DNA from: a virus
IMG/VR virus record: IMGVR_UViG_3300021400_000002
Span: 1 to 45,302 of that record
DNA: 45,302 nt
Reading direction: 5' to 3' (one strand)
Part shown: piece by piece, positions 3,437 to 45,302 of the stretch
How the letters are laid out: each line of letters begins with the position of its first letter
Position numbering within the stretch: the stretch's first letter is position 1
Notes under the pieces: generated by a model
Database searches by the model: none
What the model saw: only the letters and a program-made list of their open reading frames with translations
What the model was told of the DNA's origin: nothing
Position numbers and translations under genes: made by a program

Positions 3437-4858
3437 ATGAAAATAGCAGCCGCATATATCCGTGTATCAACCGATGATCAGACGGAGTTGTCTCCGGACA
3501 GTCAGATCAAGCAGATACGCGAATATGCAAAGTCCCATGACTACATCGTTCCCGAAGAGTTTATTTACCGCGATGACGGCATATCTGGACGTAAGACCAA
3601 GAACCGACCTGCATTTGCCCAAATGATAGCAACAGCGAAATCAAAAAAGCCACCTTTTGAGGCTATCTTAGTATGGAAGTTTAGCCGTTTTGCAAGAAAC
3701 AGAGAGGATAGCATAGTCTACAAGTCCATGCTGAAGAAGCAGGGCATTGACGTTATCAGCATATCTGAGCCTGTCGGTGACGATAAGATGTCAGTGCTCA
3801 TTGAAGCCATGATTGAAGCTATGGACGAGTACTATTCGCTTAACCTTTCGGAAGAGGTAACAAGAGGTATGCTTGAAAAGCTTTCACGCGGCAAATGCGT
3901 TAACTCTGCTCCACTCGGCTACTACTTCAAGGATGGCGAACTGGTCATAGACGAGGAAAAGGCTGAGATAGTCCGCTGGATATACGCAGATTTCCTTGAT
4001 GGTGTTCCTATAGTACAGATAGCACGAAATCTAAACGCTGAGGGCATAAAAACGCTATATGGCAAGCAATTTGAGAACCGCAGTATAGAATATATACTTC
4101 GAAATCCGCTGTACTGTGGCAAGCTACGTTTTACCAAGGGTGGAGGTTCTAAGAGCCACTACCATAAATGCGAGGATGTGATGATTGTAGACGGCACACA
4201 TGAACCTATAATCGCGCTTGACGATTGGAATAGAGCTGCCGAAAAGATACAAGCCATAAAAGCAAAGCACCGTAAATATTATCACGAATACGCCAACAAA
4301 CACACTCTGATGCTTACCGGGCTTTTGCGATGCTCAACGTGCGGAGCATCACTCACGCATTCCGCAGACGGATATCAGTGCATCAAGTATATTCACGGAT
4401 TCTGCAATGTATCGCATTATGTCAGCCAAAACAAGATACACAAAGCTGTTATCGCAGCCCTGAGCGATGCATCTATCGGAGATATCCACATCTCTCCCAA
4501 AGTGCAAAAGCCAAAGACCACCGACAACACAGCAAAGCTGATAGCACGTGAAGAAGCCAAGCTTGATAGAGTAAAGGATGCTTATGCCGCTGGCATAGAC
4601 ACTCTTGAGGAATACAAGGAAAACAAGCAAAAGATAATTGCTGAGATAGAAAGACTTAAATCCACACAGGCACAAGAAAAGCCTGCTGCCATCAACATGG
4701 AAGACATACAGGCTAAGAGGCTATCGTTCTTAGAAATGGCAAGTGATCCCGAAGCATCACCTGAGATGCTGAACAGCGCACTCAAAGAATTCATTGATTA
4801 CATCGTATACGACAAGGCAAGTGAGCATATCACTATTTTTTATTCTCGCACATTATAA
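3437..4858 (+). CDS. int: Large serine recombinase (integrase)
   Basis: N-terminus AAYIRVSTDDQ...SPDSQ (resolvase catalytic motif), a recombinase domain, a Cys-rich zinc ribbon CSTCGASL...C and a C-terminal coiled coil; 473 aa. Confidence 0.92.
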   Translation: MKIAAAYIRVSTDDQTELSPDSQIKQIREYAKSHDYIVPEEFIYRDDGISGRKTKNRPAFAQMIATAKSKKPPFEAILVWKFSRFARNREDSIVYKSMLKKQGIDVISISEPVGDDKMSVLIEAMIEAMDEYYSLNLSEEVTRGMLEKLSRGKCVNSAPLGYYFKDGELVIDEEKAEIVRWIYADFLDGVPIVQIARNLNAEGIKTLYGKQFENRSIEYILRNPLYCGKLRFTKGGGSKSHYHKCEDVMIVDGTHEPIIALDDWNRAAEKIQAIKAKHRKYYHEYANKHTLMLTGLLRCSTCGASLTHSADGYQCIKYIHGFCNVSHYVSQNKIHKAVIAALSDASIGDIHISPKVQKPKTTDNTAKLIAREEAKLDRVKDAYAAGIDTLEEYKENKQKIIAEIERLKSTQAQEKPAAINMEDIQAKRLSFLEMASDPEASPEMLNSALKEFIDYIVYDKASEHITIFYSRTL

Positions 4859-17094: not shown

Positions 17095-17545
17095 CTCCTG
17101 TCAAGCTTCTCCGAAATGGATACGCTGTAAATGTAGCCGTCAAATACGCCATGTTGAGATAGCCCTCTGACTTGTTTTCAACCTTGATTTCGGTGCATTC
17201 GCAGTCATCGAAGTAATATCCTGCCTCAAAGTTGTCAACTATACGGTCTGTGTCATGGCTGTACAGCCAAGCTTCGACCTGTGATATCTTAGTTCTCAAA
17301 GCCTGCGGTGTATCTTCAATGATTTTGAATTCGTATGTAAGCACACGCTCATCAAACATCAACACACCTGAGGCGCGTGAAGCCCTCACACGCCCCTGCC
17401 TGTATGGAAGTTTAATAGAGGGAGTGCGAGGCTTTGTATCGTTTACTTTTGTATTCTTTGTTATAAGTAAGTTAAAATCAGTCAGCGAATTCTTTCCATT
17501 AAAGGTTATATTTCGCAGACCTGTTAATGTAGCAAAACTCCTCAT
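17078..17545 (-). CDS. Distal tail protein (Dit-like, short form)
   Basis: 155 aa, overlaps the TMP stop. ITFNGKNSLTDFNLLI...PRTPSIKLPYRQG is typical of siphovirus tail-family N-termini. Confidence 0.6.
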   Translation of the reverse strand: MRSFATLTGLRNITFNGKNSLTDFNLLITKNTKVNDTKPRTPSIKLPYRQGRVRASRASGVLMFDERVLTYEFKIIEDTPQALRTKISQVEAWLYSHDTDRIVDNFEAGYYFDDCECTEIKVENKSEGYLNMAYLTATFTAYPFRRSLTGGADVV

Positions 17546-20500
17546 AGCTGTCTACCTCTCGTTGCAAGCATTATGTTTCTGCCGCTGATAACGTCAAGCA
17601 AAGGTGCAAGCACAGATGCCATCAGCTGTCCGTCAACGCTCAGATTGATAGTAGCCTGCCTGTCTAGCTGGCTGTCAGCCGCCTGTGTGTTAGCTGTTAT
17701 GCTTCCAACACTAGGCTCGATATATGCACTCTCAGCCGCTGAATTTGCCATCATCATAGCCGATTCTTCTGCCATGCCTGCATTATCGTTGATACCAAGT
17801 GCAAAGCCTTCGGAGAAGAATCCGCCTAACTTTCGGAGCACCTTTGACGGAGAATGTTCGTCAAGAGCCTCTCTCACGCTTGCTATGGCTTCATTTGCCA
17901 TATTTCTAGCTGCTGTGGATATCTCTGACATCACGCTTTCATCGTTCATACCGAGTGCAAAGCCTCTTGCGACCATACGTCCGATATCCTCAAATCGCCT
18001 TGACGGTGAGTGTGCATCCAATGTGGTCATGGTATCATCTATGGCTTCTTGTGCCATGTCTGAACCTGACTTTGCAGCTTCTTTCAGTTGTGCTTCAACG
18101 CCCTTTGCAAAGCCCTCATCAGCAGCAATACCCATACTGTAGTAAGCTTGCTTGAAGTCCTCTATATGCCCTTCTGGTACGCCTGCAAGTTCTCTCAGCT
18201 GATTCTCTATAGATGCTTTCTGACCTGCTACCATTCGGTCAGTTACGTTCTGTACGCTGGCTTTTGTATCATCCCAAAGCTTAGAGTATGCAGCCAGTTG
18301 TTCATCAGATGCATGATATAGAGCCATTACATAGCCATAGCTATCCAAGCCCATGTCCTTTAACTCTTGCAGTAATGATCCCGATATATCACGGCTTTCA
18401 AGTTGTTCGATACCTGTTGCCCAATTGGTCAAGCCGTCAGCGGTCTGATCAAGGTTTTCCCACATAGTATCAAAGCCTGCGTTGGTCTTTTCAAAGCCGC
18501 CAAAGAAGTTTATAGAGCTTTCAATGGCATTTCTTTGTTTTTCGACTAACTGATCATAAGTATCAAGCAGTGCGCCTATACTTGTAGCTGTTGATTCCGA
18601 GAGATCAACCATTTTTCCGTTAAGGCTTAGTGTTACACCTGCGATACCGTTGACTTCATCGTAGAATGTTTGAGCCGCACTACTGATCTGATTCGTATGC
18701 ACAGCAACAAGTTCAACCGCTGAAGCAGTTGCATCCTCAACAGCTTCTTGCTCTTTAACGATCTGATCAGCAGATTTGCCGATGATAGCTGTCATATCAT
18801 CGATTTCACCATTTATTTCTCTCAGATTAGCGCTGGCTGTTGTAAATGTATTATTTAAGCCGTTTTGTCCGCCGAGTTGCTTATTGACGGATTCAAGCTG
18901 CTTGTCAACTTCTTTTAACGCATAATCTGCGTTTGAAATTGCTTCATGCTTACTAGTTGGATCATCAAGAACTTTCTGCAGTCTTTCCTGTGTTCTGTAC
19001 AGTTCATTTCGTCTGTATATAAGCTTGTTACGCTCAGAATTGGCATCATTATATGCCTTTTCGGCTGATATCTGCTTTTTCATCAAATCAACAAGATTTT
19101 CTCTTGCCGCTTCGACTTTAGCCTGTTTAAGATAGCTGTCCATAAGTTCATCAACAGCTTCTTTGTTGTTCTTTAGCTTGCCTGTCTGCTCATCGAACTG
19201 GAGATTTAAGCCTTTTACCTTGCCATTGAGTTCTTCAACAATTGCAGCCATCTGAGCCTTCTGCATGGATGACAGTTCTTCCATTTCGTTGAGCCGCCAC
19301 AGCTGGTTATACAGATTCTTCGTTTCCTCTGCATCATCGGCTGTCTGTTGCATACGATCTTTGCTTGCCTGTACGCCTTCATTTACAGCTTTGTTGGTTT
19401 CCTCAATGCTGGCTACCAATTCCTTTTGTGCATCGGTCATAGCATTATCGCCATCAACAGTTACATCTATTGCATCTGTTTGTGCGTTGATATACGACCT
19501 CAGAGCCACTCCAGCCGCCACTACGCCAGCCGCAATTGCCGCGTAAGGGTTAAGTGCTGTAACAGCGTTGAACGCTTCCTGCGCCGTTGTAGCCGCCTGT
19601 ATAGCCTTTACTGTTGTCATTATAGCTTGTACAGCCGCCGTACCCTTGACAACAGCCTGATAGGTCAGAAATGCCGCTACAGCACCCTTGACAGCCGCTT
19701 CTACGCCGAATATGTGCTTTGCCGTACTTCCCATTTCCTGTCCTATCGTAAGGTGGAGAGCTTCCATAGCACCTGATAATCCATCACGCCCAAAGCCCTT
19801 AGACATCTCACTGACAGCCTTTGAGCCGAACTGTGTAAACTTCCTAAGTGAAGGTGTTAAACGGTCTGAAACGGCTATCTGTGCGCCCTCAACGGCAGAT
19901 TTGAACAGCGTGATATCACCTTGCAGGTTATCTAACTGTGTGTTAGCCATATCCTGCGCCGCTCCTGCAGCATCGTCTATCTTTCCGCTGAGTTCTTCGT
20001 ACCTGTCACCGACATTGGCTATCATAGCCTCTGCAGCCTTCATATCACGTGCATTGAATATGCTTGTAATGACCTGATCTCGTTCAGCCTGAGTAGCAAG
20101 GCTATCCATGCCGTTTCTGAGGTCTATAAACACATCGTTAAGGCTTCTCATGTTGCCTTCCGAATCGTACAGAGATACTCCAAGCTTCTCCATCATCGCT
20201 GTTGCATCTTTGGTCGGGGACATCAGAGATGTAAGCATATTACGGAGATGTGTGCCGCCCTCTGCACCCTTCATACCATTGTCAGCGAGCATTCCGAGAA
20301 TGGTTGTTAACTCTGTTGTGCCACCTTTCAGCTTCTTTGCTGAACCGCCTATCTGGAGCATAGCTTCACCAAGTTGTGATACGCTTGTATTTGATGAGGA
20401 TGCGGTTTTAGCCATCTTGTTTACCAGCTCTGTGGTCTCGTCCATAGACAAGCCCAAAGCCGATTGAGCATCGGTTATCATGTCTGAGGCTCTAGCCAAG

Positions 20501-20592
20501 TCCATACCGCCCGAAGCCGCAAGATTTAACACATTCGGGAGCATCGTCATTGACTTTTCGGCATCATAGCCTGCAAGAGCCATGTAATTCAG
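17542..20592 (-). CDS. Tape measure protein, exon 2 (1016 codons)
   Basis: Begins LNYMALAGYDAEKSMTMLPNVLNLAASGGMDLARASDMITDAQSALGL (TMP core), then a long Ala/Gln-rich coiled coil. The track ORF starts one codon earlier at ATG 20595. Confidence 0.85.
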   Translation of the reverse strand: MNYMALAGYDAEKSMTMLPNVLNLAASGGMDLARASDMITDAQSALGLSMDETTELVNKMAKTASSSNTSVSQLGEAMLQIGGSAKKLKGGTTELTTILGMLADNGMKGAEGGTHLRNMLTSLMSPTKDATAMMEKLGVSLYDSEGNMRSLNDVFIDLRNGMDSLATQAERDQVITSIFNARDMKAAEAMIANVGDRYEELSGKIDDAAGAAQDMANTQLDNLQGDITLFKSAVEGAQIAVSDRLTPSLRKFTQFGSKAVSEMSKGFGRDGLSGAMEALHLTIGQEMGSTAKHIFGVEAAVKGAVAAFLTYQAVVKGTAAVQAIMTTVKAIQAATTAQEAFNAVTALNPYAAIAAGVVAAGVALRSYINAQTDAIDVTVDGDNAMTDAQKELVASIEETNKAVNEGVQASKDRMQQTADDAEETKNLYNQLWRLNEMEELSSMQKAQMAAIVEELNGKVKGLNLQFDEQTGKLKNNKEAVDELMDSYLKQAKVEAARENLVDLMKKQISAEKAYNDANSERNKLIYRRNELYRTQERLQKVLDDPTSKHEAISNADYALKEVDKQLESVNKQLGGQNGLNNTFTTASANLREINGEIDDMTAIIGKSADQIVKEQEAVEDATASAVELVAVHTNQISSAAQTFYDEVNGIAGVTLSLNGKMVDLSESTATSIGALLDTYDQLVEKQRNAIESSINFFGGFEKTNAGFDTMWENLDQTADGLTNWATGIEQLESRDISGSLLQELKDMGLDSYGYVMALYHASDEQLAAYSKLWDDTKASVQNVTDRMVAGQKASIENQLRELAGVPEGHIEDFKQAYYSMGIAADEGFAKGVEAQLKEAAKSGSDMAQEAIDDTMTTLDAHSPSRRFEDIGRMVARGFALGMNDESVMSEISTAARNMANEAIASVREALDEHSPSKVLRKLGGFFSEGFALGINDNAGMAEESAMMMANSAAESAYIEPSVGSITANTQAADSQLDRQATINLSVDGQLMASVLAPLLDVISGRNIMLATRGRQL

Positions 20593-20818
20593 CATTGTGT
20601 TATCGTAAAGGCTTTTTATCCCTTACTTCTTACAGTTCAATTCCTGTAAGTTCAGCATACATTTTCACTTTCGTGTCGGGCACTCTTGGACAGATTATAT
20701 TTATTCACTGTCTATGCGTTACACTGTCTTATCGCCTTTCGCTATCGATAAGATTAGCACGGTGTTGGCATCTCAGCGTTCACCGTTTTTGCCCGATTTA
20801 TAGACACCCTGTATATTA
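20593..20818 (-). ncRNA. Putative self-splicing group I intron (226 nt, no internal ORF) inside the tape-measure gene
   Basis: 5' exon ends GACGCU and pairs with guide GGUGUC (intron nt 11-16), giving a U-G wobble at the splice site. P10 is CAG/CUG. The last nt is G. P3, P4, P6, P7, P7.1, P8, P9 and P9.1 can be drawn in canonical order (see finding). Confidence 0.75.
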
Positions 20819-21226
20819 AGCGTCTGCTGCCTGGGTTGCACTAAACGCCGTTGAAGCACCCATATCCTGTGCGAAATCACGCAGTTCCTGCACTTCATCA
20901 ACAGTTACGCCCATTGTAGCCGCTACCTGAGACATAGAACTGTCAAAGGTCATGCCTGCGCCGATTGATTCTTTTCCAAAGTCAACGATTGCACTTGTAG
21001 CACTCTTGATAGCACTTGCCATCAGATTTCCTATCATCGAGGCTTTCTGCATCTGTGATGCCAGCTCACTGGTCGATGATTGCGCCGTATTCATGCCTGT
21101 TGAGACCTGACTAAGATTGCTTGTGACGTTACTGCCAGCGTTCACAGCATTGTGCAAAGCCGCTTCATACTGCGATGTGTCAAGCGTTAACCTAGCTGAT
21201 AGGCTCATTACATCAACATTAGCCAT
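20819..21226 (-). CDS. Tape measure protein, exon 1 (136 codons)
   Basis: ATG 21226 after SD AAGGAGGG. Product MANVDVMSLSARLTLDTSQYEAAL...DFAQDMGASTAFSATQAADA, followed immediately by TAA, the first intron bases. Confidence 0.8.
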
Positions 21227-21557
21227 TGTTCGCCCTCCTTCCACATATTTTAGAGAATATATCGTTTGCGACATCAAGCGGATTTTGTTCTTCTTCCGGG
21301 GCTTCTTCTACTATCTGAGGTTCAACTATATCACGGTAACTTACCTTCATATAGTTGCCGCCATATGCTTTCGCTGTGTTCTGTGCTATGGCATTCAGCA
21401 CATCGGTCAGATAGTATCTGTATGCGTTTTCCCTTGTTACAGACCGTATAGCATCACGGAAGTATTCCTGCCCGAATATCGCGTATTTATCGAGGTCTAA
21501 CGATGTTATCAGTTCGCCGAACCGAATAGTCCCCAGACACTCAACGCCGAAAAAAAA
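21219..21557 (-). CDS. Tail assembly chaperone -1 frameshift extension (T part of the G-T fusion)
   Basis: The -1 frame is open from the T8 run to TAA at 21219 (FFFGVECLGTIRFGELITSLDLDKYAIFGQEYFRDAIRSV...) and has no SD-preceded start near its beginning (the first in-frame start is a GTG at 21401, used by the ORF track). Confidence 0.75.
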   Translation of the reverse strand, partial: FFFGVECLGTIRFGELITSLDLDKYAIFGQEYFRDAIRSVTRENAYRYYLTDVLNAIAQNTAKAYGGNYMKVSYRDIVEPQIVEEAPEEEQNPLDVANDIFSKICGRRANNG

Positions 21558-31624: not shown

Positions 31625-32242
31625 TTAATCCCATTTAAGTTTGTTTTTAAGCCATTTCTTGCCCATATCTGTTGTTAATGTTCTGCCTTTTGATACTGAT
31701 GGGTCAAGTTGACGTACAAGTTCGTCTCCTAACTTGCTTATTGTATTTCTATCTCGCAGGAGATTTCGCTTGTCGATGACAGATGATGCGTTTTGAGTTT
31801 CGCTCAGCATCGCAGTAAATGAGTTTCTAAGCACCTTTGCAGCTTCTCTTTTGCCGCTGTCTGTCTTTTGTGCATCTGCTTTTTCTCTCGCGTTGATTGC
31901 TTGTGTTTGCGGATTAAGGAATGTATACTTAATGTCTTTATTGCCATTAAGATAGTCAGAGAGATTATTCTCTTCACGTGTTCTGTTTGCATCAAGCTTC
32001 TGATTGTATGCATTAGATGCAGATAACTCCCATGCATCAATGTTTCTGTAAACGTCTTGTTCTATGTCTCTAGCATATTGTTTCTGCTTCTCTGAACCAT
32101 CATGGTTAAGAGTCGAGACCATTTCATCAACGTTTGTCTGATTTGTTTTAATATACAGGTCATCATAAGATGGTGTTGCTCCGTTTCCTCCGCCACCAGA
32201 ACCACCTGCTCTACTTGCACCCCAATTCGGCATATTACTCAC
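31625..32242 (-). CDS. Hypothetical protein (205 aa), Gly-rich N-terminus with a polar helical body
   Basis: MSNMPNWGASRAGGSGGGGNGATPSYDD...; start overlaps the radical SAM stop (coupled). Confidence 0.7.
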   Translation of the reverse strand: MSNMPNWGASRAGGSGGGGNGATPSYDDLYIKTNQTNVDEMVSTLNHDGSEKQKQYARDIEQDVYRNIDAWELSASNAYNQKLDANRTREENNLSDYLNGNKDIKYTFLNPQTQAINAREKADAQKTDSGKREAAKVLRNSFTAMLSETQNASSVIDKRNLLRDRNTISKLGDELVRQLDPSVSKGRTLTTDMGKKWLKNKLKWD

Positions 32243-33264
32243 TCCTTAAAGTTGTCTCTGCATTGTCTGTACCAATCAATGATGTATTGCCCTTTTTCGA
32301 TCATCAAGTCCGCAAAGGATTTGCCTTCCACTGTTTTGGCAAATATCTGGTTTTGCCCAATAGCCTTGAATGGTCTGTAAGTGTCTGTTCGCTTCATTGC
32401 TTCTGTCGGTTCAGGTGGTATATCGTTCAATGCGAGGTAATTTGTGTTGTACTTGTTACGCCTAAAGCCCTCTAAGCCGTTTGTAGCGCAGCATCCGCAT
32501 TCATCTGTCCAATGCCCCATGCCATCTTCGCAAAACACATTCTGCAAGCCGTATTTGTGGCATTCTTGTTTGATTTCGCGGTATTTTGGCACAAGCAGTT
32601 CAAGTGGAAAGAAGTAATTGCCGCCATACCGTGTCATGCCTTTGGTCTTCTTTTTGGTGATATAAGAGCCTACCATAACAGCATAAGCACCTGCCTCTGC
32701 GTATCTTGGTATCTCAGCCATTATCTGCTTGTGGCAATCCGGGAAGTAAGGCACAACGCATACTACGATCCTCGGCACTTTGTCCGAGAGAAACGTTATA
32801 GCCTTCAGGCGTTCTTCATAGCTTGGTGCGCCTTTTTCCAACTTGTCATACTTACTGCAAGCCATTGATACTTGCAGATTGACGTTGCATTGCTTTATCA
32901 ATGTCAAATACGGTTCTTCCGTCAGCATCACTGGATTTTTTGTCCGAATGATAAACGGATACTTGCTTTCTGCAAATACCTTTAAGCACTCCAGAGATAT
33001 CTTGTATTCACGCTCAGCCACTTGAAAAGGGTCTGTATTGCCGCCCATTTTAAGCGGTATATCCCAATCGCACCAGCGTGTATCACAGCCTCTTCTACCC
33101 TCTGTGAAGTGTTTAAGCTGTGTTACCGATGATAAAGGCTCAACAGTGTCTATCGTGTGCTTCTGCTTTACAAAGCAGTATAAGCAGTTATGCGAACAGC
33201 CTCGATATGTGTCAAGATTGATAGGATAATCGCAGGTTAGGCATTGTAATCCGCAGGAGATCAT
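32239..33264 (-). CDS. Radical SAM enzyme, SPL/SplB-like (COG1533-type)
   Basis: INLDTYRGCSHNCLYCFV (CxxxCxxC cluster in the PYRGC.H.C.YC context) and later GGNTDPFQ..E; 341 aa; extra C-terminal Cys cluster DECGCC. Confidence 0.8.
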   Translation of the reverse strand: MISCGLQCLTCDYPINLDTYRGCSHNCLYCFVKQKHTIDTVEPLSSVTQLKHFTEGRRGCDTRWCDWDIPLKMGGNTDPFQVAEREYKISLECLKVFAESKYPFIIRTKNPVMLTEEPYLTLIKQCNVNLQVSMACSKYDKLEKGAPSYEERLKAITFLSDKVPRIVVCVVPYFPDCHKQIMAEIPRYAEAGAYAVMVGSYITKKKTKGMTRYGGNYFFPLELLVPKYREIKQECHKYGLQNVFCEDGMGHWTDECGCCATNGLEGFRRNKYNTNYLALNDIPPEPTEAMKRTDTYRPFKAIGQNQIFAKTVEGKSFADLMIEKGQYIIDWYRQCRDNFKE

Positions 33265-33815
33265 GTGCCATCATCCTCCGCCTCCTTGATTATCCTCTCA
33301 ATAACATCATTCTGATGCTTACTGAGATAGCTTATTATTGCTTTTTTCTTATCTATCGGGAATGTAAACGTCTTGTTAAAGAAGTCCCTGTCATCATCGT
33401 TCTTGTCATATCCGCCGAAATCCTGTATATCATCAACAGAGAACATATCGGGGATATCGATGTCAAAATCGTCCATGTCTATATCTTCGATTTTGTCTAA
33501 TTCCTCACTGAATAAGTCCCAATCCGTATCACCTTTGGCTATCTCGTTATCAATTAGCCTGTATGCCCTTATTTCATCCTCTGTGAGGTCATCGACTAAC
33601 TCACAAGGCACAGATACCATGCCTAATCTCTGCGCCGCTAAGAGCCTGCCATGTCCACATACAACCACATTGTCAGCATCGATGACAATAGGCTGTCGAA
33701 GTCCGTGTGTCAGCGTAATTGACTTAATTATCTGCTGTATCTGCTTTTCTGTATGTATTTTCGGATTGTTTTCATACGCTATCAGATCAGCTATCGGCTT
33801 TTCGACTATGTTCAT
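33261..33815 (-). CDS. ParB N-terminal (ParB/Srx-fold) domain protein
   Basis: IADLIAYENNPKIHTEKQIQQIIKSI...GLRQPIVID..NVVVCGHGRLLAAQRLG; acidic C-terminal half; 184 aa. Confidence 0.8.
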   Translation of the reverse strand: MNIVEKPIADLIAYENNPKIHTEKQIQQIIKSITLTHGLRQPIVIDADNVVVCGHGRLLAAQRLGMVSVPCELVDDLTEDEIRAYRLIDNEIAKGDTDWDLFSEELDKIEDIDMDDFDIDIPDMFSVDDIQDFGGYDKNDDDRDFFNKTFTFPIDKKKAIISYLSKHQNDVIERIIKEAEDDGT

Positions 33816-39868: not shown

Positions 39869-40672
39869 TTAGAATGGCAGGTTATCCCAGTCGATTTCTC
39901 TGTGTTTTGGCTGTTCTTCTTTTTTTTCATCGTCTTTGTCATTGAAATTGCCGTCAAGCACCTTGCAGAAGTTAGTGTCATTCATCAGCCAATCGAAGTT
40001 TGCACTCCAGTTCCGCTTGTTGCTCCCTTTGAGGAATGAACTTCTTTCTGCCTTCTCAAAAACTTCTCTGACTTCATCCATGCTGTGAGTTCTCAGCCTT
40101 GCATTGATAGCTTTACGTCTGTTATCAGATATTGATCGTACTCTCGGATAGCTTTTGCAGATATCATGATAAAGATTTACCACATCAGTGGCTGAGATTT
40201 TCGGCTGTGGGTCAACGCCAGTTGACGAAGAATACGTAGTATTCTCTTCTAACCTATCCTTACCTATCCTATCCTTACCTAACCTATCCTCGGTTGTCAT
40301 TTGGTTGTCAGTTGGTTGACAGATGGTTGTCAGTTGGTTGACAGATGGTTGATTTGTAACAATCTGTACTTTCAAATCTCTGTATATCCCAGCATGATAC
40401 CTGTCTTTTCGTATTGAGTTGTTAGCCTCCCAATCAGTTAAGTAAGCTATCAAGTCTTCGTCATCAAGGATTTGAACATATCCTTTAGCTACAAGCACTC
40501 TGAGATCATCTTCTCTGGCATTTGTTAGCCGCATTACGTTCCATGCTTCAACTACGCCGTCATCATCTGCCGCCATACCCATCTGAAAGTATAGTTCTCT
40601 TGATGATACTGGCATTTTCAGAAATCTGCTACCTTGAACTATTGACTTTGCAAACATTCTTCTCTCTGCCAT
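39869..40672 (-). CDS. Phage replisome organiser (N-terminal rep_org domain)
   Basis: MAERRMFAKSIVQGSRFLKMPVSSRELYFQMGMAADDDGVVEA...; contains DNA iterons in its middle. Confidence 0.8.
   Translation of the reverse strand: MAERRMFAKSIVQGSRFLKMPVSSRELYFQMGMAADDDGVVEAWNVMRLTNAREDDLRVLVAKGYVQILDDEDLIAYLTDWEANNSIRKDRYHAGIYRDLKVQIVTNQPSVNQLTTICQPTDNQMTTEDRLGKDRIGKDRLEENTTYSSSTGVDPQPKISATDVVNLYHDICKSYPRVRSISDNRRKAINARLRTHSMDEVREVFEKAERSSFLKGSNKRNWSANFDWLMNDTNFCKVLDGNFNDKDDEKKEEQPKHREIDWDNLPF
40251..40352. repeat. Probable origin of replication: iterons inside the organiser gene
   Basis: Four tandem 10-mers (A/T)ACCTATCCT-type at 40251-40290, then GGTTGTCAGTTGGTTGACAGAT x2 (40303-40324 and 40325-40346), each holding the inverted pair TGTCA/TGACA, plus partial copies. 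Confidence 0.7.
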
Positions 40673-41094
40673 TATCCGTTATATCCTCCGAAGCCTCCAA
40701 AGCTTGCTTCATAGCTGTTTTCGCTATTAATATAGCCACTATCATTTGAAGCAGGGTCTGTCCCATAGTTATTTGCCTTTTCGCCTGTGAATGATGCACT
40801 GTCCACATATACCTCAGTGATATAGTGCTTTGTGCCGTTCTTATCTTCGTAGGTTCTTGACCTGAGTTCGCCCTCAACAGCTATCATCTTGCCCTTGCCA
40901 AAGTATTTGTTGATAAACTCGGCTTTTTCTTTCCATGCTACACACGATATAAAGTCGGTGTCATACTCGCCGTTCTGGTTTTTAAAGCCCCTATCCACAG
41001 CCACCGTGAACTGCAGGCAGGCTACACCGTTCTGTGTCTGCTTGACTTCAAGGTCGTTTACTATCCTGCCAAGAACTATACATACATTCAACAT
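40672..41094 (-). CDS. ssb: Single-stranded DNA-binding protein
   Basis: OB-fold N-terminus MLNVCIVLGRIVNDLEVKQTQNGVACLQFTVAVDR...ISCVAWKEKAE. C-terminus ends FGGFGGYNG rather than an acidic D-D-D-x-P-F tip. Confidence 0.88.
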   Translation of the reverse strand: MLNVCIVLGRIVNDLEVKQTQNGVACLQFTVAVDRGFKNQNGEYDTDFISCVAWKEKAEFINKYFGKGKMIAVEGELRSRTYEDKNGTKHYITEVYVDSASFTGEKANNYGTDPASNDSGYINSENSYEASFGGFGGYNG

Positions 41095-41736
41095 TTATAT
41101 TACCCCTTTTCTTATTTGTGTTCTTCTTGTTGCAATGATATCTCGTGAACAATTGTATTTTTTCATTAATTCTGAGTTTGTAAGTCCGTTTTCAATGTCT
41201 TTTTTTAATTCATCTATTGGTATTTCATATTTTGTTCCAATATGAACTGGGATCTCATATTCATCAAGATATCTTTTTACTCTATAGTTACTTATGTGAT
41301 TTTCTTTTGCAATTTTTGATATTCCTTTATGTTCTTCCACATACATCTGAATCATGTCATCTTTTGATAATTTTTTCAGTTTCCTTAATCCAGTTCGTAT
41401 TGCGTGTTCATTATTTTCTTTTTGTGTACACCATTCGAGATTTGTAATGTGGTTATTTAACCTATTTCCATCAATATGATTGATGTAAGGCTTGTTTTCT
41501 GGATTTGGTAAAAACGCAAATGCAACTAAACGATGAATTCTATGTGTCTTTCTTTGGTTATCTTTTATAAGGTCGATTCTATAGTATCCGTTTGTAGTTA
41601 GTGTTGGTGTAATAAAATGTTCTCTACCAATCTTTTGATTATTGCCAAATGTTTGATAGCTTTTCACTCTGCCGATGTTACTTATTTTATAAAGTCCTTC
41701 ATATCCTTTAATATCTCGCCATTCTTCCATCTTCAT
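41095..41736 (-). CDS. Free-standing HNH homing endonuclease (NUMOD4 + HNH_3-type)
   Basis: EEWRDIKGYEGLYKISNIGRVKS (NUMOD4) and INHIDGNRLNNHITNLEWCTQKENNEHA (HNH). Visibly AT-richer than its neighbours; abuts ssb and the TAG-broken gene with 0-1 nt spacing. Confidence 0.85.
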   Translation of the reverse strand: MKMEEWRDIKGYEGLYKISNIGRVKSYQTFGNNQKIGREHFITPTLTTNGYYRIDLIKDNQRKTHRIHRLVAFAFLPNPENKPYINHIDGNRLNNHITNLEWCTQKENNEHAIRTGLRKLKKLSKDDMIQMYVEEHKGISKIAKENHISNYRVKRYLDEYEIPVHIGTKYEIPIDELKKDIENGLTNSELMKKYNCSRDIIATRRTQIRKGVI

Positions 41737-42026
41737 CACTCCTCCTCTAAATAATTACGCCCGAATATCTCCCTGAATTGGTCTATTGACCATCCTTGTT
41801 CTTTCATGGCTTTTTCCTGTCCGTATCTGTGCAACATTGCTGCTGTCTGCTTGTTGTGATGAACGCCGTATGGTTGTTCATTGTGGCAGTAATGGCACAG
41901 ATAAACCACAAGACCGTATTTTTCGGATAGTTTTCTGTTTGCGCCGCCGAAAATGTGCTAATGGTGACGTTCAAGCCCTCCAGCGTGTCTGTTCCGCTGG
42001 CAAATAAAGCATCGTCTATCGTCCAT
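41736..42026 (-). pseudogene. Small HNH-motif Cys/His protein interrupted by an in-frame TAG (41958-41960)
   Basis: MDDRRCFICQRNRHAGGLERHH-TAG-HIFGGANRKLSEKYGLVVYLCHYCHNEQPYGVHHN...FGRNYLEEE. SD GAGGG 8 nt upstream of ATG 42026. The stop sits inside the HH catalytic motif. Confidence 0.6.
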
Positions 42027-44776: not shown

Positions 44777-45177
44777 AGATGATTCGCTACAATCTCACGA
44801 TTTGTAGTTACTGCTTCACCGTGTATGCTTTTGCAGTTACAAGTAACATACTACTCACAAGTTCTTGTACACTCCACAGTCGTTAATTCCCGAAATAGCC
44901 TTCGGTACATATCCATATCGCCTTGTATGTGGCATAATATGGATTTCATCTAAATAGTAGACTCTCCTTTCTTAATATTTTAATTTGCTACTTGGTTTTT
45001 GTAGTCTTATACCATTACTCAAACACAACCATCAGGTTTCTACACCATAGTTAGCAGGACTTTTTCAAACTGCTCTGGTATTTCCTGTGTTTTCAGTGGT
45101 TTTAAGTTACCAACTAATACTCTGGGTTTTGAGTATCTTTGAGTATATTTACTCACATTTGATAATATTATTAGTTA

Positions 45178-45302
45178 CTTAACAAAACCTCCTTTGTACT
45201 CTTCCACATGGCTGGAATAATACCGCGATAACGCCTCAGATACCCTCTCTGTGGCTTTCTCTGCCCACTCGGCTAACTTATCGGCTGATATCCTTTCGGC
45301 GG
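45178..45302 (-). CDS. 3' end of the junction-spanning early ORF (same gene as 1-228)
   Basis: ...SRYYSSHVEEYKGGFV-TAA; stop at 45178-45180. Bases 45196-45302 duplicate 1-107. Confidence 0.55.
45196..45302. repeat. Second copy of the 107-bp terminal repeat
   Basis: Identical by eye to bases 1-107. Confidence 0.9.

Follow-up and report, generated by a model that had tools for sequence, protein, structure and literature searches.

The stretch of viral DNA analysed here (IMG/VR record IMGVR_UViG_3300021400_000002, 45,302 nucleotides (nt), referred to below as the window) carries a gene for a phage tail tape measure protein (TMP) that is interrupted by a 226-nt segment on the minus strand, at positions 20593–20818. 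We interpret this segment as a group I intron of IA-like type, without an open reading frame (ORF) and without a P2 helix, and assign to this interpretation a probability of about 0.9. It is based on the collinearity of the two exons with uninterrupted homologues, on an empty site in a related phage, on covariation within an intron family that includes the P3/P7 pseudoknot, and on profile homology to the introns of Lactobacillus phage JCL1032. Judged by sequence comparison, the element is homologous to the JCL1032 introns and has the size and architecture of the one in the terminase gene terL. Both the group I assignment and the exact splice sites, as given in an original prediction made from the sequence alone, are supported. 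The TMP of this phage is predicted to be one protein of 1152 residues, and not a 136-residue 'hypothetical' protein followed by a 1017-residue TMP.

Insertion point in the tape measure gene

The division of the TMP frame into two pieces, as first proposed, is borne out by the sequence and its ORFs, and joining exon 1 to exon 2 produces a single ORF of 1152 residues. A strong Shine-Dalgarno sequence (GGAAGGAGGG) is present upstream of exon 1; the ATG that opens the ORF-finder's version of exon 2 has no Shine-Dalgarno sequence, and corresponds to the ...AAUG 3' terminus that is common to the whole intron family, regardless of the host gene. With its 226 nt the spacer is not a multiple of three, and the exon frame meets a TAA at the first spacer codon and further stops after it, so the spacer is neither an in-frame intein nor a linker, as had been argued. 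The predicted absence of a homing endonuclease gene (HEG) also holds, as the 226 nt contain no ORF on the sense strand; the spacer is overlapped only by an out-of-frame ORF of 42 residues and an antisense ORF of 89 residues. The latter (window 20550–20819, plus strand, TTG start) covers the whole intron, has no Pfam match and is most likely spurious. No promoter-like or terminator-like sites were found on the minus strand within the spacer, which is consistent with read-through transcription of a late operon. The identical exon-2 ORF was found on 10 contigs, and wherever upstream DNA was shown (places from three samples) it was preceded by the 136-residue exon-1 ORF and the gap.

The exact insertion point could be deduced from uninterrupted homologues. 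The spliced N-terminal 381 residues of the TMP retrieved 784 homologues, of which the best 120 (52–88% identity) were inspected. All 120 run gap-free across the junction with the sequence A[D/E]A|LNYMALAGY, in agreement with the claim that the joined pieces rebuild a contiguous TMP core, AADA|LNYMALAGY. The junction lies between codons 136 and 137, inside the most conserved motif of the TMP, which is unsplit in every one of these best 120 of the 784 homologues. Only the combination of U(-1) and G226 as splice-site nucleotides restores GCU|CUG, i.e. A|L as in the homologues. An alternative 3' splice site three bases downstream would remove the Leu residue, and is ruled out by the gap-free homologues.

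An empty site was identified in the closest relative found, a 9-kb contig (L128) carrying P0023 (88% identical). Here the sequences matching window 21057–20820 and window 20593–20267 abut at L128 position 5575/5576, with 85% and 83% identity, respectively, and L128 lacks exactly the 226 nt; exon 1 ends there in the codon GCG, where the window has GCU. The intron-less target sequence, of which the L128 allele is an example, reads GCAGACGCNCTGAATTACATGGC. The TMPs of three prophages in metagenome-assembled genomes (MAGs) of Oscillospiraceae, the only prophages matched by the TMP query in the genome contig collection, are also uninterrupted at the junction, in one frame. An apparent 282 extra nt in an Oscillospiraceae MAG prophage TMP proved to be a coiled-coil insertion and not an intron.

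The L128 TMP is itself interrupted (L128 5900–7072) about 100 codons further downstream, after ...LADNGMKG. This insert comprises a more distant intron-like sequence (28 bits with the family covariance model R1 described below, cut off by the contig end) and a 248-residue ORF that has no Pfam match and a weak HNH-like motif. At the matching place the window reads straight through (LADNGMKGAEGGTHLRN).

An exact-pattern scan of IMG/VR with the junction pattern GATAACANAATGYTNAAYTAYATGGC gave 0 matches, which is a weak negative, and a looser junction pattern retrieved from the JGI metagenomes only one contig of 1056 nt (ODAJ011846260.1). Over its first 445 nt this contig matches window 20827–20383, comprising the intron and the start of exon 2, with 100% identity; the other 611 nt gave no alignment with window 20001–21400, the part with which it was compared. 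Going by the identical stretch, the contig most likely belongs to the same phage, possibly as a recombinant variant or as a chimera. The exact-pattern searches yielded no allele that has the same exons and lacks the intron, again a weak negative.

Conserved structure and intron family

The intron folds with a minimum free energy (MFE) of -59.1 kcal/mol, compared to -40.2 +/- 3.8 for 200 dinucleotide shuffles (z = -4.94), none of which (0/200) folds as well. Helices P3, P4, P6a, P7.1, P8, P9 and P9.1 are all recovered in the MFE fold, and every core helix is intact and without mismatches (Table 1; intron nucleotides are numbered from the first one on the minus strand, 20818). Most of the helices that had been predicted could be retained. 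P1 is present with its U.G pair at the splice site, whose position follows independently from protein collinearity and from the empty site, the last nucleotide of the intron is the expected omega-G, and P3, P4, P7, P9 and P9.1 occupy the predicted positions and are supported by covariation within the family. Other elements require some qualification. The helix that had been named P6 exists but represents P6a, as P6 proper is a short helix directly after P4'. P8 is found where it was placed, but has only 3 bp, and is length-variable and poorly aligned across the family. The bases for P10 are present, but they form only 3 bp, and U1 can wobble-pair with G10 in competition with them; P10 is therefore plausible but weak. 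The extra hairpin described between P7 and P3' (nt 107–130) is present and covaries; it is a single hairpin, with no second one beside it, and P2 is absent. We call the intron IA-like on this basis, without a choice between IA1, IA2 and IA3.

Table 1. Exons, intron and helices of the interrupted TMP gene (window coordinates; nt, position within the intron)
Feature	Coordinates	Strand	Pairing or sequence	Remarks
TMP exon 1	20819..21226	-	MANVDV...TQAADA	136 codons; 85% nt identity to L128 5338-5575
Intron	20593..20818	-		226 nt, ORF-less; first nt U (20818), last nt omega-G (20593)
TMP exon 2	17542..20592	-	LNYMALAGY...RGRQL	1016 codons + stop; 83% nt identity to L128 5576-5902
P1	20824-20819 / 20808-20803	-	exon 1 GACGCU / guide GGUGUC nt 11-16	6 bp, U(-1).G11 wobble at splice site
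P10 candidate	20811-20809 / exon 2	-	CAG nt 8-10 / exon 2 CUG	3 bp
Internal guide region	20803..20811	-		P1 guide strand + candidate P10 strand
P3	20796-20790 / 20682-20676	-	UCGGGCA nt 23-29 / UGCCCGA nt 137-143	span 20676..20796; encloses P4-P6, 5' strand of P7, and P7.1
P4	20759..20786	-	ACGGUG nt 33-38 / CACCGU nt 55-60	A-rich J4/5; same P4 in RF00028 alignment
P5	within 20759..20786	-	GC nt 42-43 / GC nt 50-51	short
P6	20723..20758	-	GCU nt 61-63 / AGU nt 94-96	directly after P4'; covaries CG/GC/AU
P6a	20723..20758	-	CUUAUCG nt 67-73 / CGAUAAG nt 85-91	conserved CGAAAG loop
P7	20717-20713 / 20659-20655	-	GCAUA nt 102-106 / UAUGC nt 160-164	span 20655..20717; pseudoknot with P3; presumed guanosine-binding helix
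P7.1-type hairpin	20689..20712	-	GACAG nt 107-111 / CUGUC nt 126-130	family-signature loop UGAAUAAAUAUAAU
P8	20666..20675	-	CAC-GAAA-GUG nt 144-153	followed by J8/7 AAAAUG
P9	within 20605..20650	-	CUUACAG nt 169-175 / CUGUAAG nt 184-190	
P9.1	within 20605..20650	-	GUAAGGG nt 193-199 / CCUUUAC nt 208-214	

A blastn search with the 226 nt alone matched 115 INPHARED records. The best matches cover about 90% of the intron at 67–77% identity, with the exons unaligned, and reside in unrelated genes of unrelated phages: the terL genes of the crAss-like phages cr7_1 (E = 1e-30 in the whole phage collection) and cr131_1 and of Staphylococcus phage SA2, as well as sites in Leptolyngbya phage Lbo-JY46, where the copy adjoins a LAGLIDADG ORF, and Bacillus phage PJN02. 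In terL of Lactobacillus delbrueckii phage JCL1032, 76% of the intron is matched, with 69% identity, and other matches fall under capsid, TMP, dUTPase or HNH annotations. A 24-nt signature taken from the P7.1 loop was found in at least 120 IMG/VR stretches. A covariance model (R1) built from seven family members detected a single copy in the window; searches of 100 sources and then of 28 more gave 115 and 35 matches, respectively. From these similarities, the window intron is a member of a large phage intron family that contains both JCL1032 introns.

Two or three family copies within a few kb were observed at several IMG/VR loci (three each in L027 and L104; two each in L011, L060, L065, L077, L081 and L114), which suggests multiply interrupted genes or gene clusters. 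In several database records the family introns are hidden: the TerL coding sequence (CDS) of cr7_1 stops at the intron, the terL gene of SA2 is split into two CDS around a GIY-YIG ORF, and the TMP of Arcanobacterium phage TPWB06 is recorded as a 'hypothetical protein' plus a TMP; the intron is unannotated in each of these records.

Covariation within the family gives strong support for the helices. RNAalifold, applied to the seven sequences, independently predicts a P1-like helix, P3, P4, P5, P6, P6a, P7.1, P8, P9 and P9.1, with compensatory changes in 43 of 56 pairs. When the originally predicted helices are counted on a 115-sequence covariance-model alignment, 89.5% of the cells are paired (66.5% after shuffling, 33–44% when the partners are slid), and the covariation score is 0.528 (0.158 and at most 0.117, respectively), with changes on both sides in 49 of 53 pairs. 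Among the individual helices, P3 is paired in 93.3% of cells with both-side changes in 7/7 pairs, P4 in 92.8%, P6a in 99.3% with 7/7 pairs compensatory, P7.1 in 100% with 5/5 pairs compensatory, and P9 and P9.1 in 97–99% with many compensatory changes, while P8 varies in length and is poorly aligned. P7 is 100% paired, and its two inner pairs switch between CG and AU and between GC and AU, CG or UA; as P7 is absent from the search model, this covariation is an unbiased test of the P3/P7 pseudoknot. The helices thus follow the order of a group I core including this pseudoknot, and the alignment made by the Rfam group I model RF00028 itself gives the same P3, P4 and P3'.

P1 is not alignable across the family, as the P1/P2 region varies, and was checked by hand in seven introns located in different exons. 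In all seven (7/7) the guide complements its own upstream exon and closes in a U.G wobble. The exon end and guide are GACGCU/GGUGUC in the window TMP, CCCGU/GCGGG in cr7_1 terL, GACGGU/GCCGUC in SA2 terL, AACGGU/GCCGUU in JCL1032 terL, UGGGU/GCCCA in TPWB06 TMP, UUCGGU/GCCGAA in the TMP of phage BMBtp13, and AGCCGU/GCGGCU in JCL1032 TMP.

The link to introns of known activity is provided by phage JCL1032. An nhmmer profile made from 100 IMG/VR members, with the window and JCL1032 left out, matched the window intron with E = 2.9e-50 over profile positions 26–249 of 257, the JCL1032 terL intron with E = 1.3e-37 and the JCL1032 TMP intron with E = 3.9e-12 (Z = 2300 Mb). Applying the same P1 and omega-G rules to JCL1032 terL leads to a 226-nt intron and an in-frame TerL of 603 residues in which the Walker A motif GRKNG|KT is rejoined, and this prediction agrees with the annotated two-piece CDS. 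In RefSeq, terL and TMP of JCL1032 (NC_019456) are both joined two-piece CDS, and the two introns are cited in the literature as proven self-splicing (for terL, Riipinen & Alatossava 2004, Arch Virol 149:2013, as cited in PMC6669764).

Some observations weigh against the group I interpretation. On the insert RF00028 matches only P3-P6-P3' and scores no more than 15.8 bits (gathering score 50; E = 0.16 when 601 nt were searched). Both P8 and P10 have 3 bp and P2 is absent, so that the activity could be weak or cofactor-dependent. Furthermore, an automated test of P1 and ORF continuity over the family gave 36% against a baseline of 31% in its loose version; its strict version produced a candidate in 14 of 87 sequences, and misplaced the site of the window itself by 1 nt owing to the extra U1.G10 wobble. 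With P1/P2 geometry and HEG insertions varying across the family, this automated test was uninformative. The RF00028 search, proposed as a check in the original prediction, did not reach the gathering score; its partial alignment (P3-P4-P5-P6-P3') assigns the same helices as had been predicted, and taken alone it would be seen as weak support. At E <= 1 RF00028 finds nothing on the JCL1032 terL intron, nor on the family members of TPWB06, cr7_1 and SA2, while it scores 97 bits on another intron of the BMBtp13 TMP gene, which is unrelated to the family. Since the model is blind to the JCL1032 terL intron too, the low score reflects a gap in model sensitivity and is weak as counter-evidence; for the same reason, the suggestion that the lack of a covariance-model hit should speak against the intron would have misled. 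The only Rfam family reaching its gathering score over the window is RAGATH-18, located elsewhere, with none on the insert. A group II intron was rejected, with no Rfam group II match at gathering score in the window, nor at E <= 10 in 20400–21000.

Predicted splicing and alternative explanations

Following the general group I mechanism, the late transcript would read through the intron, and P1, with its U.G wobble, would be formed by the guide GGUGUC and the exon-1 end GACGCU. An exogenous guanosine bound in P7 would then attack the 5' splice site, after which the terminal G (20593) would occupy the guanosine site and the freed 3'-OH of exon 1 would attack the 3' splice site. Joining of the exons as GCU|CUG would create an mRNA for one TMP of 1152 residues, with the predicted mRNA junction GCAGCAGACGCU|CUGAAUUACAUGGC and the predicted junction peptide ...TQAADALNYMALAGYDAEK. 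We infer that this copy splices; its homology to the JCL1032 introns suggests that it would do so as a guanosine-dependent self-splicing intron, and a functional TMP would presumably depend on it.

An improbable alternative is that the insert is a decayed group I relic that does not splice, and that the TMP is made as polypeptides of 136 and about 1017 residues, or as the large one alone, the split being tolerated or compensated. Such decay could account for the missing endonuclease ORF, the short P8 and P10 and the absent P2, and the two genes annotated by gene callers and the in-frame ATG exactly at the end of the spacer would fit with separate translation. This ATG, however, is part of the ...AAUG end conserved throughout the family, irrespective of the host gene, and is not accompanied by a Shine-Dalgarno sequence. 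All core helices are intact and mismatch-free, and the profile built without either sequence scores the window intron at 2.9e-50, as compared to 1.3e-37 for the JCL1032 terL intron cited as self-splicing. Moreover, the split would have to be tolerated inside the most invariant TMP motif, unsplit in the best 120 of 784 homologues, and the allele is maintained identically on 10 contigs, with the places shown originating from three samples.

The strong fold, and the absence of any Rfam family at gathering score on the insert, would also be compatible with a structured intergenic RNA (a small RNA or regulatory element) between two natural tail genes. This is very unlikely and effectively refuted, as the homologous proteins are never two genes, neither in the best 120 of the 784 homologues nor in the Oscillospiraceae MAG prophages, and the closest relative found is without exactly these 226 nt. 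In addition, copies of this RNA are inserted in terL, capsid, TMP and other ORFs of unrelated phages, with a guide that fits each upstream exon, and the P3/P7 pseudoknot and helix order are those of group I. Bridging of the gap as an intein, or by ribosomal bypass or frameshift, would explain nothing more than that the two ORFs belong to one protein, and is already refuted by the sequence, i.e. by a length of 226 nt that is not a multiple of three, the TAA at the first spacer codon and the several later stops in the exon frame, the lack of a Hint or endonuclease domain, and the homology of the spacer to RNA introns.

Phage context, mobility and comparison with known introns

The ends of the window share an exact direct overlap of 107 nt (1–107 and 45196–45302), which indicates that the genome was assembled as a circle of about 45,195 bp and is probably complete. 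It encodes a large serine recombinase (3437–4858), a GH25 lysin, an SPP1-type portal protein, TerL, SSB and Gp157, and looks like the genome of a temperate siphovirus-like phage. The nearest TMP homologues in the genome contig collection reside in Oscillospiraceae MAGs, and the host is probably a member of this family of gut Clostridia. A megablast search of INPHARED with 20 kb of the window revealed no close relatives; the only match was a stretch of 37 nt, corresponding to the 3' end of the intron, within the BMBtp13 TMP gene.

Two other features of the window were noted. A RAGATH-18 RNA (RF03064) is present at 44808–44880 on the minus strand (72.4 bits, gathering score 44.9, E = 1e-12). RNAs derived from RAGATH-18 have been reported as guide RNAs of IS607 TnpB nucleases (PMC11061315). 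No TnpB-like ORF was found upstream of it, as all frames of 44881–45302 are rich in stops, after which the genome wraps to a Bro-N gene, and the RNA looks like an orphan copy in the phage. Just upstream of the terminase genes (32239–33815, minus strand), adjacent ORFs match radical SAM (24.7 bits, cut-off 29.5) and ParB_N (25.6 bits, cut-off 26.3), both just under the curated cut-offs.

A free-standing HNH endonuclease had been predicted 20 kb away from the intron, and was indeed found as an ORF with NUMOD4 and HNH_3 domains (and a weak HTH) at 41095–41739 on the minus strand, about 20.3 kb from the intron and directly upstream of the SSB gene (40672–41094) in the replication module. Comparison with the HNH encoded in the BMBtp13 intron and with the ORF of the L128 insert showed no significant similarity, and nothing links this endonuclease to the intron site. 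Endonucleases of related introns are encoded either by an HNH ORF in the P5 loop (BMBtp13) or by adjacent LAGLIDADG or GIY-YIG ORFs. Without an endonuclease gene, the window intron is probably passed on by vertical descent along with the phage, or transferred now and then by recombination, and it looks like a HEG-less, degenerate stage of the usual cycle of intron gain, HEG loss and intron loss. A wider proposal, which we consider rather unlikely, is that minimal introns of about 226 nt without P2 form a large, coherent family missed by Rfam even in the case of JCL1032 terL, with hundreds of split terL, capsid and TMP genes mis-annotated in phage and metagenome records, and that free-standing endonucleases, for example the NUMOD4-HNH protein at 41095–41739, mobilise in trans ORF-less copies like the present one, whose TMP site A|LNYMALAGY was encountered in no other lineage by the pattern scans.

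The intron family is common in phage genomes, as seen from the 115 INPHARED records matched by blastn and the at least 120 IMG/VR stretches, and lies below the RF00028 gathering score. The finding that RF00028 misses a common family of phage introns is the most useful by-product of this analysis. Several GenBank records give the interrupted genes as separate or truncated CDS, and with a covariance model made for this family many annotations of phages would be corrected. The length of the phage tail scales with the length of the TMP, and comparisons of tail length or gene content that are based on split ORFs would therefore be wrong. The window intron itself adds an example to a pattern described since the 1990s–2000s, in which group I introns are inserted at the best conserved motifs of late genes in phages, and opens no new question.

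Group I introns in phage TMP genes are already established, having been described since 2004–2008. Tourasse & Kolsto 2008 (PMC2504315) describe three insertion sites (TMP-IVS1/2/3) at conserved positions in TMPs of B. cereus-group prophages, with introns of subclasses IA1/IA2, some of them without a complete HEG, and with an internal guide sequence that adapts to each site; a table in the same paper lists the JCL1032 TMP intron (ORF17) as a homologue. The novelty rating of the original prediction was thus too high, as TMP group I introns, including HEG-less ones, were known from this paper, and the JCL1032 introns appear as joined CDS in RefSeq. New here is a further family member at an apparently new insertion site: going by sequence, the A|LNYMALAGY site may be new, a view that rests on the weak negatives of the exact-pattern scans. 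It differs in sequence from the JCL1032 TMP, L128 and BMBtp13 sites, which were those compared.

Both the JCL1032 TMP intron and one of the BMBtp13 TMP introns are of the same family as the window intron, but are inserted elsewhere. The former is longer (about 304 nt) and its site is ...ELANRG... / ...AGTGLR..., about 520 codons into the gene; by motif resemblance only, it looks like the site of the L128 interruption. The BMBtp13 family intron is inserted at KLFG|TMYEDQG and, unlike the window intron, carries an HNH ORF in its P5 loop. The record of Bacillus phage BMBtp13 (KX190832, 2486–4169) divides the TMP into three 'tape measure' CDS and an HNH nuclease; the gene contains two different group I introns, one of which is RF00028-positive (97 bits) and the other of the window family, its last 37 nt being 97% identical to the window intron.

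In phage TPWB06 and related 92-kb Staphylococcus/Mammaliicoccus phages, an unannotated family member is also located in the TMP gene, with a similar exon-2 start, AAYWACAUGGCU; in TPWB06, exon 2 starts with AAUAACAUGGCU, compared to (CUG)AAUUACAUGGCU in the window. The TPWB06 intron differs from the window intron by a P2 hairpin, a length of 254 nt and a clean 5-bp P10 (UUAUU/AAUAA). The TPWB06 and window TMPs are too divergent for BLASTP, and site homology is not established. crAss-like phages, which provided some of the best matches, have been reported to be dense in group I introns.

The classical IA-type introns of phages, such as those of T4 td, nrdB and sunY, the SPO1 DNA polymerase gene and Twort orf142, are phage-borne and self-splicing, and share with the window intron the extra hairpin(s) between P7 and P3' and a location in conserved coding motifs. 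They differ by having P2 and usually both P7.1 and P7.2, and many contain homing endonuclease ORFs. The JCL1032 terL intron resembles the window intron far more closely: it belongs to the same family and aligns end to end, with about 69% identity over the 3' three-quarters of the intron, and it is likewise 226 nt long, ORF-less and without P2, with the same set of helices and the same ...GAUAACA..AUG 3' end, and both introns lie in the best conserved motif of a late gene for structure or packaging. The two differ in their insertion site, Walker A of TerL (GRKNG|KT) versus A|LNYMALAGY of the TMP, and in the matching guide, GCCGUU versus GGUGUC.

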